Assembly: GCA_964016885.1 (NCBI GenBank)
Contig: CAXHJY010001209.1
Coordinates: 1 to 64,000 of the forward strand
DNA: 64,000 nucleotides
Origin: Eledone cirrhosa
Lineage: Eukaryota
Direction of reading: 5' to 3'
Below, piece after piece: positions 14,212-48,078 of the stretch (positions are counted from its first letter, which is position 1; each line of letters starts with the position of its first letter). Position numbers and translations under genes: made by a program. The notes beneath the pieces were generated by a model. It was given only the letters and a program-made list of their open reading frames with translations. It searched no databases and was not told the DNA's origin.

Positions 14212-14408
14212 ATAGGAACGAGTAGGACCCCGACGGCTGAGCTCAAGCCGTTTCGACGGCTAATTCTGGGTCCAGAATTAGCCGTCGAAACGGCTTGAGC
14301 TCAGCCGTCTGGGTCCTACTCGTTCCTATTACCCACTCTACTACTCTAAGTATTGAGTACTTTGGTGCGTTATGGTCCACCTGGTTCCTTACCACATTTC
14401 CTTCGTTA
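14212..14408 (+). mobile_element. Family-X fold-back element (58-bp inverted arms plus ~80-bp tail) between (TA)n tracts
   Basis: 14212-14269 is the reverse complement of 14272-14329 with 1 mismatch; carries the half-hammerhead GAAACGGCT...AGCCGTC. Confidence 0.85.
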
Positions 14409-14649
14409 TATATATATATATATATATATATATATATATATATATATATATATATATATATATATATATATATATATATATATATATGCCTTTCATAGGT
14501 TATAGATTCCATACACTGGTGGGTTTTTTCCCTGTATTATTGATAACGGACTGTATATCTCTCTCTGGTGTGATACCGTTTCAACATATTGTATATATAT
14601 ATATATATATATATATATATATATATATATATATATATATATATATATG

Positions 14650-14886
14650 ACTAGCGAAAAGGAGAACATTTCTGTTGAACTAAGAGGAATCTTCAGATAC
14701 ATCACCCTGACTATAACTTTAGATCTGTACCTTTGATTATTGGGGCTCTTGGATGTTACTAACTGCCTCAATACAAATCTTGAGAAGCTGCGTTTCACAG
14801 TACCCAGAATGAGCACGGCCAGTTAGGAAGTTTTAAGTACAGTCCAATGATGGAACTGTAAAGATATGTAAAACATTTCAGAGTTA
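14650..14886 (+). mobile_element. 3' fragment of a restriction-like-endonuclease (R4/Dong/NeSL-type) non-LTR retrotransposon
   Basis: Frameshifted translation EKENISVEL/NLQIHHPDYNFRSVPLIIGALG/VTNCLNTNLEKLRF...VRKF*VQSNDGTVKICKTFQS* matches the REL C-terminal pattern (P.IIGALG...GT.KI). Confidence 0.6.
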
Positions 14887-15075
14887 AAGTTGCCACGATG
14901 GCCTTAAATACGTGAGGCGCTGTTGACTGTGTTGAAGAGAGGAACATGATTAAGTATGAGGCCTTGGCAGATTGTTCTTTTAGTGCCAGTGGCTGTTGTA
15001 ATATATATACAATATGTAACATTGTATTGTATTTCTGGTCGATATAAGACAAGATTTATATACAATTGTTGTTCA

Positions 15076-15273
15076 TAATAATTGTTTCTACCTTTGCCAC
15101 AAGGCCAGCAATTGCCTCCAGTTAATTACTGGTACTTTATTTTATCGACCCCGTAAGGATGAAAGGCAAAGTTAACCTCGGCGGGATTTGAACTGAAACC
15201 GTAAAGGGCCGTAACTCTATGCTGCGAAGCATGGCCAATACTGAACCTCTACCAATACTGCCAATCCACCGCC
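15076..15273 (-). mobile_element. SINE family A, full length
   Basis: Reverse-complement match to the 9398 copy. Confidence 0.9.
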
Positions 15274-15527
15274 TTGTTGTTAATAATTATGTTACATATA
15301 TTGAACTGCCTGGGAAATTAATGGCCATCGAGGAAATGTTTTTTGGTTAAAGAGATGATATATTTTGTAACAATCAGTTTCTACACCAATCTTCTAAGGC
15401 AGGCTTTAATTTTTCGTTTATTATCGATTTTATTGTGGGTAGCTTGACAGTGTTTTATTCTATCTTGGTATAGGGTACATCTGGGAACTGTAATCACGTG
15501 TGCTCTACAACACACAAACTCCTACAG

Positions 15528-15713
15528 AATTGTTTCTACTTTTGGAACAAGGCCAGCAATTACTCAGTGCATTACTGGTACTTTATTTTATCGACCCCGT
15601 AAGGATGAAAGGCAAAGTTAACCTCGGCGGGATTTGAACACAGACCGTACAGGGACGTAACTCTGTGCTGGAAAGCATGGCGTCCGACCCTCCACCGATA
15701 CTGCCAATTCACC
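15528..15713 (-). mobile_element. SINE family A, near full length
   Basis: Reverse-complement match to the 9398 copy. Confidence 0.9.
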
Positions 15714-16462
15714 AAACTCCTCTCACATAATACTCACATAATACACACAAAACCAGAGAGACAGAGTCATACACACATACACATACACACATACATACAC
15801 GTAGACACACAGACACATAGATACAGACATACACGTAGACACACAGACACATAGACACAGACATAATAAAATAGCTGTTATAATTTAGAGTTTTTTCTCC
15901 ACAACATCTAATCCCTATAATTCCAATAGAGTTAGACTTGTTGAGGTTAGGTGAAGTGTTTCAGCTGTTTAGTTTAGTAGTGTTTACGGCGTGGGGCAAC
16001 GGCTGGGAGCGCTCAACTATACTTTATATATATGTATATATATATATATATATATATATACACACATACATAAATACATATATATATATATACATATACA
16101 TACATATATATATATACATATATACATATATATATATATATACACATACATAAATACATATATATATATATACATATACATACATATATATATATATACA
16201 TATACATATATATATATATATATATATATATATATATATATATATATATATATATATATATATATATATATATATAAGTATGTATATATATATATATAAA
16301 GGAAGAGTTAACCTCGGCGTGATTTTATTATATATATATATGTGTGTGTGTATATATATATATATATATATACACACACATATATATATATATATATATA
16401 TACACACACATATATATATATATATATATATATATATATATACACACACATATATATATATA

Positions 16463-16577
16463 ATAAAATCACGCCGAGGTTAACCTTGCCTTTAATCCTT
16501 ACGGGGTCGATAAAATAAAGTACCAGTAATACGCTGGGATAATTGCTGGCCTTGTCCCAAAAGTAGAAACAATTATA
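16463..16577 (+). mobile_element. SINE family A, 5'-truncated, inside (TA)n
   Basis: CGCCGAGGTTAACCTTGCCTTTAATCCTTACGGGGTCGATAAAATAAAG...; its 5' end is mirrored at ~16297-16330. Confidence 0.85.
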
Positions 16578-45051: not shown

Positions 45052-45246
45052 ATAGGAACGAGTAGGACCCCGACGGCTGAGCTCAAGCTAAATCTGGACT
45101 AAAATTAGTCCAGAATTAGCCGTCGAAACGGCTTGAGCTCAGCCGTCGGGGTCCTACTCGTTCCTATTAACCACTCTACTACCCTAAGTATTGAGTACTT
45201 TGGTGCGTTATGGTCCATCTGGTTCCTTACCACATTTCCTTCGTTA
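45052..45246 (+). mobile_element. Family-X fold-back element (short arm internally deleted)
   Basis: ATAGGAACGAGTAGGACCCCGACGGCTGAGCTCAAGC-TAAATCTGGACTAA-AA-TTAGTCCAGAATTAGCC...CCTTCGTTA. Confidence 0.85.
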
Positions 45247-45884
45247 TATATATATATATATATATATATATATATAATGTATGTATAATACTGAAACGAA
45301 GTCATCGAATGAGACCGATATACCTTAGATCATTTCCCACTGGAAAGCAAAGTGTACACTAATATATAATATTGTAAAAGAACAGAAAACATTATATATA
45401 TATATAGGTTTTTGTACAAGACCAGTAATTTGGGGGAGAGAGGAAAGTAAATTAAACCGACCTTCTACATTACTGGTACCTTATTTTATCGACCCCGTAA
45501 GGATGAAAGTCAAAACAGGATTTGAACTCAGAATGTAAAGGTCCGTAATTCTTTGCTGTAAACCATATTTTCCGGCTCTTTAACGATACTGACAACCCAC
45601 TACCCTAATAGACTCGTATACATAATGATTTCTGGTTTAGACACTAAACCAGAAATTTGGCGGGAGGGGAAAGTCGATTAAATTGACCTCAGTTCATTAC
45701 TGGTACTTTCTATTGATATCACCACTTAACTCTTCATTAAATATATTTTATTGCTTATTTAAAGATTCTGTCATTCACTAGTTCTCTTGAGAATAATATT
45801 CTGACTGGCTTTACCGAAAATAAAAATAAAAAAAAATTAGAATTTCGATCTTTGCTCTAACATAGCGGATACAACGAATTGATA

Positions 45885-46032
45885 CGGTCTGAGTTTACGT
45901 CCCTTTACGATCTGAGTTCAAATCATGTCGAGGTTAACTTTATCTTTCATCCTTACGGTGTCGATAAAATAAAGTACCAGTAATGCACTTGGTAATTGCT
46001 GGCTTTGTGCCAAAAGTAGAAACAATTATTAT
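45885..46032 (+). mobile_element. SINE family A, lying inside a short inverted-repeat pair
   Basis: B box GAGTTCAAATC and family-A body; flanked by GCTCTAACATAGCGGATAC and GTATCCGCTATGCTAGAGC. Confidence 0.8.
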
Positions 46033-46862
46033 TATTCAATATAAAATCACGAATGCATTTACGTATCCGCTATGCTAGAGCGAAAAACGAAAAACGTAAT
46101 TCTAATTTTGTTTTTATGACAAAAGTATTTTGCTCCTTTCATTTCCATGCAATCTTAATAAACTACAGTTTAGCCTAGGCCCGTATCTTTCTAAATTTCA
46201 AGAACCCAATGGTAATACACACCTCTAAAAAAACATAAAATTATGCATTAAGAAAGTTATGAGGAAACAAAATCAGATTTGGGTTACTAAGTGTATGTTG
46301 GCTGCCATTTCTAACAAATGAAGTGACCTCACACAAGCTCCATTGAAATAATGTTTAATCCTTTAAATATTTTAATTACGTCGTTTTTTTTCTTATCAAA
46401 TGATTTCCGGGTTTTTATGTTTTCAACATTAGCGATATGTAAAAACAAAAAAATTAATCATAGAAAACAAAAATTAATCTGTTTCTTAATCAGAAGAGGA
46501 TTTATAACTGCAGTAAACTGTTTAATATATAAATACATATATTTCCTTTACGTATGAAGGATATAAATAAACACTTTTGTGTAGAAATCCCTTTTTAAGT
46601 GTTTACATTTGAAAAGTTTCGTGAAAATTTAAAATGTTATTTCAGTTTCAAATTATTAGGATTAAAATCTAATTACTACTTCACACAGAATACATTTATA
46701 CATTTCAAATACAAACGTAATGTATTAAGATATAAAAAAAATAAACTACTGCAGCTGCAATCAGTTACCCAGTAATACATATTCAAAAATTTAAATATTT
46801 CAGATTTTATACATACATATATATATATTTTTAAAAAATAGAGGTGGAACACACGAGTTGTG

Positions 46863-47187
46863 ATATATTAGTAAAAAGGAAAAGAAAATGCTGACAAATT
46901 TTTCCCAGTGAAAAATAGTTTAATTAGGAATATGTATAAATTAGTAATAAGTATTGGTTAGTCTTCAGTTTTAGTTTTAAGTTTTTACCGGTTGCGTATT
47001 TCTTATGCTTTTCAAAAATAATTTTGAGATAGAGTGCTCGTGATTTTTGCTCTGATCTAGAGTAAAAACTTAAAACTAAAACTGAATACTAACTAATACT
47101 TATTACTAATTTATACTTATTCTTAATTAAACTATTTTTCACTGGGAAAAATTTGTCAGCATTTTATTTTCCTTTTTACTAATATAT
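46863..47187. mobile_element. Fold-back element with 126-bp arms and a degenerate hammerhead in the spacer
   Basis: Arms 46863-46988 and 47062-47187 have about 5 mismatches and no indels. Minus strand reads UUGAAAA-GCAU[AAGAA]AUAC-GCAA-CCG-GUA. Confidence 0.85.
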
Positions 47188-47604
47188 ATATATATATATA
47201 TATATATATATATATATATATATATATATATTTAATACATTAACAGAGAAAGCTTTAAGCAATACTCCGACCGGCTTCCGTCTCACTCAACAAACATTAG
47301 GATATACCTTAGTATAATCCCAATAATACGTTTGGGGTGCTAACTATACGTATTTTGCGGATAGCCAGTTGTATTATTTTATATGAGACATAATTAAAAT
47401 ACATCTCTCTTTCCAAACGATCGTTTCATTATAAGTTTTCTACAAATTGGGAAAATAATGTCCTGGTTATGTAGAAGCCTACACATAGTCCGTAGGAATA
47501 TATGTAGGTAGGCACTTATAAATCATCAGTGGATGCCCGACATATATATATATATATATATTTAATTAGATAATTAGAAAATGAACAGCGCAATATATAA
47601 CTAC

Positions 47605-47733
47605 TCCATTACCAAAGGTTTCTGGACCCTCAACAGAGACGTCTGAAACCGTTCATCAGAACCTGATTCTGATGAGCGATTTCAGACTTCTCTGTTGAGC
47701 TCGCCTGTCTTCGTGAAGCCTCTGGTAAATGGA
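47605..47733. other. Diverged fold-back made of two back-to-back degenerate hammerheads
   Basis: Plus strand CUGAUGA-GCGA...UCGU-GAAG-CCUCUG-GUA; minus strand CUGAUGA...GAAA-CCUUUG-GUA; inner arms ~30 bp. Confidence 0.55.
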
Positions 47734-47840
47734 ATAATTGTCTCATGATGTTTATTACATAATTAAATAGCTCTGTAGCATACATAGAGCACTCTCCTTT
47801 CCCTTACCCTTCCTACGGAAATACTTCATATATATATATA

Positions 47841-48078
47841 TAACGAAGGAATTGTGATAAGGAACCAGATGAACCATAACGCACCAGACTACTCAATACT
47901 TAGGGTAGTAGAGTGGGTAATAGGAAAATGTTCAAGACCCCGACGGCAGAGCTCAAGCCATTTCGACGGCTATTTCTGGACTAAATTAGAATTTTTAGGC
48001 TAAAAATTCTAATTTAGTCCAGAAAAAGCCGTCGCAACGGCTCGAGCTCTGCCGCCGGGGTCTTGAACATTTTCCTAT
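47841..48078 (-). mobile_element. Family-X fold-back element, reverse orientation, ~79-bp arms
   Basis: Centre ...AGAATTTTTAG-G-CTAAAAATTCT...; tail TAACGAAGG on the left; TA on both flanks. Confidence 0.85.

Follow-up and report, generated by a model that had tools for sequence, protein, structure and literature searches.

The window considered here is a 64,000-nucleotide (nt) stretch of Eledone cirrhosa DNA (assembly GCA_964016885.1, contig CAXHJY010001209.1, positions 1 to 64,000, forward strand), which has 36% GC and is rich in microsatellites (180 tandem-repeat rows). It contains several copies of family X, a short repeat with two inverted arms and a one-sided tail, set in (TA)n runs. 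A sequence-only reading had put four fold-backs of this family at 14212, 24283, 45052 and 47841 (copies 1 to 4 below) and had likened them to the inverted ends and tails of Penelope-like elements (PLEs). All four were located there; they are near-perfect, and no two have the same centre. The extra copies it proposed fared unevenly: the single-arm copy at 4919 stands, with limits of 4917-5057, and the one near 50205 is better described as a short-arm remnant joined to distal tail. The features of the family are as follows, with diverged relatives at the end:

4917-5057, plus strand: single long arm and tail, with unique sequence upstream
4938-4960, plus strand: 3' half of a hammerhead-like core (GAAAC, a helix III whose loop is palindromic, and GTC), 5' half-core absent
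4986-5012, plus strand: tail hairpin (4-bp base, 2-nt bulge, upper stem, then ACT)
14212-14329, plus strand: fold-back of copy 1, 57-nt arms (short arm 14212-14268, 4-nt loop 14269-14272, long arm 14273-14329)
14330-14406, plus strand: tail of copy 1, 77 nt, tail hairpin at 14335-14361, (TA)n after it
24283-24401, plus strand: fold-back of copy 2, 4-nt loop at 24340-24343
24402-24478, plus strand: tail of copy 2, 77 nt, tail hairpin at 24407-24433
45052-45167, plus strand: fold-back of copy 3, 4-nt loop, 12-nt deletion in the short arm
45168-45244, plus strand: tail of copy 3, 77 nt, tail hairpin at 45173-45199
47843-47919, minus strand: tail of copy 4, 77 nt, tail hairpin at 47888-47914 with one change within its last three bases
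47920-48078, minus strand: fold-back of copy 4, 78-nt arms (long arm 47920-47997, 3-nt loop 47998-48000, short arm 48001-48078)
14287-14309, 24358-24380 and 45125-45147: the same 3' half-core in copies 1 to 3
50200-50296: collapsed copy, an inverted short-arm remnant fused to distal tail, adjoining (GA)n/(TA)n
36765-36900, minus strand: diverged relative (74-78% identity over 51-61 nt) with the half-core and a decayed tail hairpin
37820-37920: further fold-back with a half-core (GAAAC-helix III-GTC), by eye a diverged family X relative whose tail hairpin begins like that of X

The outer ends of family X are fixed and its centres vary. As had been claimed, the short arm ends in CCTAT followed by (AT)n in all four fold-backs, and the long arm carries a one-sided tail, estimated earlier at about 80 nt, which measures 77 nt and runs into (TA)n in all five copies that have it, the single-arm copy included. 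All four short ends and all five tail ends therefore lie in the (TA)n setting that characterizes the target of the Hydra clade of PLEs; a random point in the window falls within 3 nt of the end of a (TA)n run with p ~0.027. Target-site duplications are unreadable inside (TA)n, and no tandem copies of the family were seen in the window. The 4-nt loop of copy 2 consists of antisense-arm sequence, so that its short arm extends 4 nt further upstream than its long arm. Copy 3 lacks 12 nt of the short arm that form a small internal hairpin, and its centre is a natural quasi-palindrome; copy 4 is oriented oppositely to the other three fold-backs and reaches furthest upstream of all copies.

The two arms of a copy resemble each other more than they resemble the same arm elsewhere. 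Within copies the arms differ at 1, 2, 2 and 5 positions; between copies, long arms differ at 8, 1, 10, 7, 7 and 9 positions (mean 7.0) and short arms at 7, 2, 12, 9, 10 and 13 (mean 8.8). In this comparison of left and right arms among the window copies the arms group by copy, with no grouping by side, which bears out the earlier claim that arm variants are copy-specific; the arm tree holds only three variant types (14212, 45052 and 4919 being near-identical) and is weakly resolved, with strong support for one of its five inner branches. In two copies, 14212 and 24283, the arms are mismatched (G/T) at the base that follows GTC (14310 and 24300), in opposite arms. The idea that this base is a hot spot marking a ligated cleavage site is not supported: the mismatch was absent among the 40 of 68 read variants listed (two of the three G>T sites of run X17 being in that list), and none of 32 metagenome fold-backs (below) showed a hot spot there. 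The repeated mismatch is possibly chance.

Population reads agree with these ends. Reads from 4 of 19 listed runs were compared with positions 4883-5060, X17 being a set of raw reads from a reduced-representation library. In X17, 22,347 of 12,467,656 reads fell on the element, which makes family X abundant but gives no copy number, because the library is reduced-representation. The reads of this run leave the element at 4980 into (AT)n in 3,764 cases (agreement 0.79), and the same exit was found in X1 and X4, that is, in three of four runs, X5 having contributed two records only. Strand-switch joints begin at seven positions (4917, 4920, 4921, 4923, 4926, 4930 and 4933; reads and contigs of X17 and X1). 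Read depth was zero at 4883-4906, upstream of the single-arm copy, so the 35 nt upstream of that copy (4919) are not element sequence. Loose ends upstream of 4917 were mixed (agreement 0.42 in X17 and 0.6 in X1); by eye they have about 20 nt more in common, which correspond to the centre of copy 47841, before they switch to inverted arms, and none of those listed (344 more being unlisted) contains CTGANGA. A read-end peak at 4927 is presumably a restriction cut at AATT.

Family X keeps only the 3' half of a hammerhead ribozyme (GAAAC, a long helix III and GTC) and no copy has CUGANGA, as the sequence-only reading had it. A hammerhead scan of the window found neither a CTGANGA nor a TTGANAA core for any family X copy, element sequence being available to about 45 nt upstream of GAAAC, and the 150 of 224 Rfam matches listed, all sub-threshold microRNA-like hairpins, included no hammerhead. 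The missing 5' core reflects either a decayed ribozyme or a long helix II that places the core past the fold-back zone; long helix II regions are present in neighbouring hammerheads at 53395 and 47661.

The architecture of family X is that of endonuclease-positive (EN+) PLE insertions, whose 5' end, in the accessible parts of PMC3846280 and PMC8557442, bears an inverted 5'-truncated copy, and which are extended on one side only and have an AT-rich or microsatellite target. Family X shares all of these, with a variable junction between the inverted copy and the adjoining 5' end, and a tail at one end and a fixed shorter end at the other; compared with the insertions described there, it has no open reading frame (ORF) or direct pseudo-long terminal repeat (pLTR) between its arms and a unit of only about 200 nt. 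The earlier reading of an inverted PLE end with a tail is thus supported, and the tail hairpin narrows it to the vicinity of the Hydra clade. According to the accessible parts of PMC8557442, Hydra elements insert into (TA)n, encode RWK, DKT and a CxCx5C linker without CCHH, and universally carry a canonical hammerhead. Family X resembles them in its (TA)n target, in having GAAAC 40-60 nt before a bulged hairpin (44 nt in X) and in a short end just before that hairpin, and is unlike them in its long helix III, in the A-T base of the hairpin (G-C in Hydra-type loci) and in having a hammerhead 3' half in place of the canonical type I hammerhead. Because that paper describes canonical hammerheads as universal among clade members and X has the 3' half only, we call family X Hydra-like and not a member. 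Taken together, we consider it highly probable that family X consists of high-copy short (TA)n fold-backs that are likely 3' ends of Hydra-type PLEs, with an inversion likely made anew at each insertion.

The tail hairpin begins 5 nt past the fixed short-arm end in all four fold-backs and 44 nt after GAAAC. In the supplement of PMC8557442, as far as accessible, a bulged hairpin stands 47-52 nt after GAAAC in two of six Hydra-clade consensi (Hydra-2_Amil and Hydra-2_Ajap); of the other four, two are partly alike and two stop short of the hairpin, and the consensus of Hydra-1_Obim ends some 43 nt past GAAAC. A degenerate motif covering X and the published consensi had four matches in the window and none in 100 shuffles, the 47841 copy missing it by one base. 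Lone tail hairpins also stand at ~11230 and ~40524. We found no published description of the hairpin and its fixed offset in the sources covered (Repbase, Dfam, figures, subscription papers and bioRxiv supplements lay outside that coverage), and the word hairpin does not occur in the accessible main and supplementary text of PMC8557442. Short X motifs have no exact match at any 3' end among the consensi available from that paper, and exact family X motifs had no match in the viral, metagenome and genome contigs searched.

A scan with the hairpin motif returned at least 120 metagenome loci (~520 estimated), and all metagenome counts here rest on these 120 listed loci. The hammerhead [C/T]TGANGA..GAAAC, whose 5' core is absent from the search motif, occurs in 66 of the 86 loci with at least 120 nt upstream, compared with 0 of 80 viral controls found by the hairpin part of the motif alone; the loci are not all independent, because 65 complete ends form 26 clusters at 88% identity, one of them with 23 members. 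A fold-back was scored in 36 of the 78 loci with at least 200 nt upstream, and in 28 of these 36 the outer end of the short arm lies at -3 to -7 relative to the hairpin, the position in X being -5 in four of four. The detector gives some false calls, such as the microsatellite beside the 4919 copy, and four loci (L038, L052, L071 and L113) were removed by hand, leaving 32 fold-backs for the analysis of cores and centres. These have 25 distinct centre lengths; CTGANGA is present in the short arm only in 8, in the long arm only in 6, in both in 15 and in neither in 3, and is thus missing from the long arm in 11.

Proteins link these loci to the Hydra type. Locus L008 contains a 705-aa ORF that encodes RWK, DKT, YRDD, CxCx5C and VIY..YIG but lacks CCH, in agreement with the account of Hydra in PMC8557442; searches of Pfam and of PDB sequences recognized nothing in it, and some of its relatives have RVT_1 or GIY-YIG domains. 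This protein or a piece of it was matched in 12 of the 120 loci vs 0 of 83 viral loci. In L016, L060 and L042 a next ORF starts after the tail, an arrangement like that of tandem Penelope units. In L008 (620-655), L016 (270-300), L060 and L042, the hairpin's 3' half reappears 15-35 nt before the start codon.

Several results weigh against a Hydra-type origin. The hairpin motif was designed after X and the published consensi had been seen, so its match to X is partly by design and the independent test is what else the motif finds. A covariance model built from 22 Hydra-type ends matched all five X tails at the hairpin, at only 15-16 bits (E 0.34-0.51), whereas its best match in the window, with E 7e-6, belongs to another family (47661-47843). 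Of the seven pairs of the hairpin one covaries, a low figure partly because the motif fixed the others, and folding z-scores are weak (-1.5 to -1.7). CTGANGA is missing from both arms in four of four X fold-backs vs 3 of 32 metagenome fold-backs, and truncation at normal spacing therefore cannot explain the loss of the core in X. At 77 nt, the tail is roughly double the 30-40 bp reported for EN+ PLEs in the accessible literature and has no recognizable Hydra ORF start. Neither tblastn of the window nor the contig searches with exact X motifs found a parent with a full hammerhead or with the single ORF for a telomerase-like RT and GIY-YIG endonuclease that marks EN+ PLEs.

How such fold-backs form may be approached through the purified Poseidon protein of Anolis, which nicks and extends both target strands, initiates at two RNA sites that lie close to a stem-loop and delimit the tail, and does not depend on ribozyme cleavage (PMC11167929). 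That study explains the tail and not the inversion, and compared with X it concerns another clade and a different stem-loop sequence. Applying its findings, we infer that a protein with reverse transcriptase (RT) and GIY-YIG domains would bind the RNA at the tail hairpin and nick both strands of a (TA)n run. A first complementary DNA (cDNA) would start at the far end of the tail and yield the long arm, and a second would start ~5 nt upstream of the hairpin and yield the short arm; both would stall in the structured hammerhead region, and their head-to-head junction would often fall on a small natural palindrome. Under this proposal the arms would share variants because both are copied from the same source RNA, and, as both arms are intact through GTC, the template would have been uncleaved. 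Such a twin-start model would account for fixed outer ends, shared variants, variable centres and an intact GTC, and would let either arm reach further upstream, as in copy 24283 and in the 8 short-only and 6 long-only cases among the 32 metagenome fold-backs. The conserved tail hairpin likely marks where copying starts. Going further, we suggest tentatively that the bulged hairpin could be a clade-wide positioning signal that sets the second start 5 nt upstream, and that X could be a ribozyme-less, short interspersed nuclear element (SINE)-like parasite of ~170 nt that keeps only this signal, has multiplied to a very high copy number and is twin-primed at each insertion.

Two other accounts stay within a Penelope-like origin. 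The inversion could arise by snap-back, one cDNA from the tail end folding and extending back on itself before an endonuclease cut at the TA-like CCTAT fixes the end of the short arm. The tiny loops (3-4 nt), the natural quasi-palindromes on which the centres of 45052 and 47841 fall and nested re-priming repeats at several metagenome centres would all fit, and the accessible text of PMC8557442 ascribes the tail to endonuclease-mediated resolution. Yet in copy 24283, as in 8 of 32 metagenome fold-backs, some upstream sequence is present in the short arm and missing from the long arm, which simple self-copying cannot yield unless the centre was later trimmed, and we regard snap-back as a fair competitor at less than even odds. 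That the template is itself a non-autonomous, SINE-like unit of ~170 nt derived from a pLTR and copied in trans by a Hydra-type enzyme, the copies then not being stubs of a long parent of their own, seems a real possibility, if short of an even chance. The mixed loose ends upstream of 4917, with by eye only ~20 nt more in common before the inverted arms, point that way, as do the three variant types, the lost half-core and the tail without an ORF start; but the loose-end evidence covers the best-supported ends only (344 unlisted), the window has no tandem monomers, and Hydra-type families whose ORF is known are also mostly short stubs (ORF in 12 of 120 loci).

The remaining alternatives place family X elsewhere. 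Descent from another PLE clade (Naiad, Neptune or Nematis) with a shared or chance-similar tail hairpin is unlikely. Naiads, whose ORF has an N-terminal GIY-YIG, do target (TA)n and are without canonical hammerheads, and eight bear the label half-core, the label that had prompted us to consider a Naiad origin; this candidate was dropped, since the Naiad half-core is the first half (CUGANGA) and not the GAAA half, and the octopus and squid Naiad 3' ends compared are by eye unlike X. Moreover, each ORF match beside a hairpin was a Hydra-type protein, the sole query used. A TA-targeting miniature inverted-repeat transposable element (MITE) or fold-back DNA transposon, that is, an ancestral palindrome with gene-converted arms and centres eroded by cruciform deletion, is a little less credible still. 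Palindromes do lose their centres, the target is TA, the copy at 50205 looks collapsed and the arm comparison rests on only three variant types; against this, the single-arm copy ends at the identical tail base, the hairpin and its offset are shared with hammerhead- and RT-linked loci, and, where a MITE has inverted repeats at both ends, the 77-nt tail extends past the inverted repeat on a single side and leaves no terminal inverted repeat at the right end. Palindromes can also be read or assembly artefacts, but chimeric fold-back reads are a very improbable source here: the arms differ by 1-5 changes within copies, and the short-arm end recurs in three of four runs (X17, X1 and X4) and matches the offset in metagenome loci.

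Short non-coding repeats derived from PLE ends are known from other systems. These include the minimal hammerheads of truncated PLEs and non-LTR (long terminal repeat) retrozymes (PMC4209133, PMC7229834 and bioRxiv 10.64898/2026.07.22.740005, as far as accessible). Among the former, motifs on opposite strands that face each other at distances of 100-700 bp were noted, and a U3-A8 core variant was also described (PMC4209133, accessible parts). Retrozymes are head-to-tail tandems with complete type I hammerheads (accessible parts of PMC7229834 and bioRxiv 10.64898/2026.07.22.740005), whereas X is dispersed and head-to-head and has neither tandem monomers nor a complete hammerhead, lacking CUGANGA.

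The window has other elements, among them (TA)n-embedded fold-backs whose sequences are unrelated to X:

47563-47843, plus strand: fold-back of a family distinct from X that has a hammerhead core with a long helix II, a Hydra-type tail hairpin and a one-sided tail, in one (TA)n run with copy 4
42241-42434, plus strand: fold-back centred on a type I hammerhead that looks complete; its one-sided tail of ~75 nt contains a similar hairpin with A-T at the base, and the short arm ends ~6 nt before this hairpin (by eye); in a TA run directly after the mariner-type element
41326-42220: mariner-type element in TA repeats, with inverted ends of ~120 nt and a transposase (Mos1-type helix-turn-helix) that has an internal deletion
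26008-26316: perfect symmetric palindrome in (TA)n with a 1-nt centre, no one-sided tail, and a minimal hammerhead with the U3-A8 core variant in each arm
46869-47181: another fold-back
8445 (plus strand), 10583 (minus), 53395 (plus), 39650-39733 (minus), 4430-4503 (minus), 31288-31389 (minus) and 14621-14704 (minus): further hammerhead-like motifs
4655-4857, 5846-6048, 32110-32312 and 53568-53793: SINE-like family of ~200 nt
9396-9592 and about 12 more copies: second SINE-like family of ~200 nt
8519-8690 and 14427-14594: duplicated stretch (84% identity); the former comes after a hammerhead-like motif, the latter is flanked by TA runs next to copy 14212

Most of the further hammerhead-like motifs lie 40-150 nt or less from a (TA)n run and are probably ends of other Penelope-like families. 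The (TA)n runs of the window thus look like landing sites for several such families.

The inverted-end-plus-tail architecture is already published and would not surprise a specialist. What is new is the assignment to a Hydra-like clade, the conserved hairpin beside the fixed end, the longer tail and an abundant family without half its ribozyme. On how Penelope-like inverted ends and tails are made, the in vitro study (PMC11167929) explains the tail only; the conserved hairpin, at its constant distance from the short end, predicts start sites precisely and offers such an assay a target that can be mutated. The hairpin also offers a DNA-only marker for annotating stubs in large numbers that are otherwise classed as MITEs or unknown palindromes. 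If the hairpin is indeed a positioning signal, short fold-back stubs would be direct footprints of an unresolved Penelope integration intermediate.

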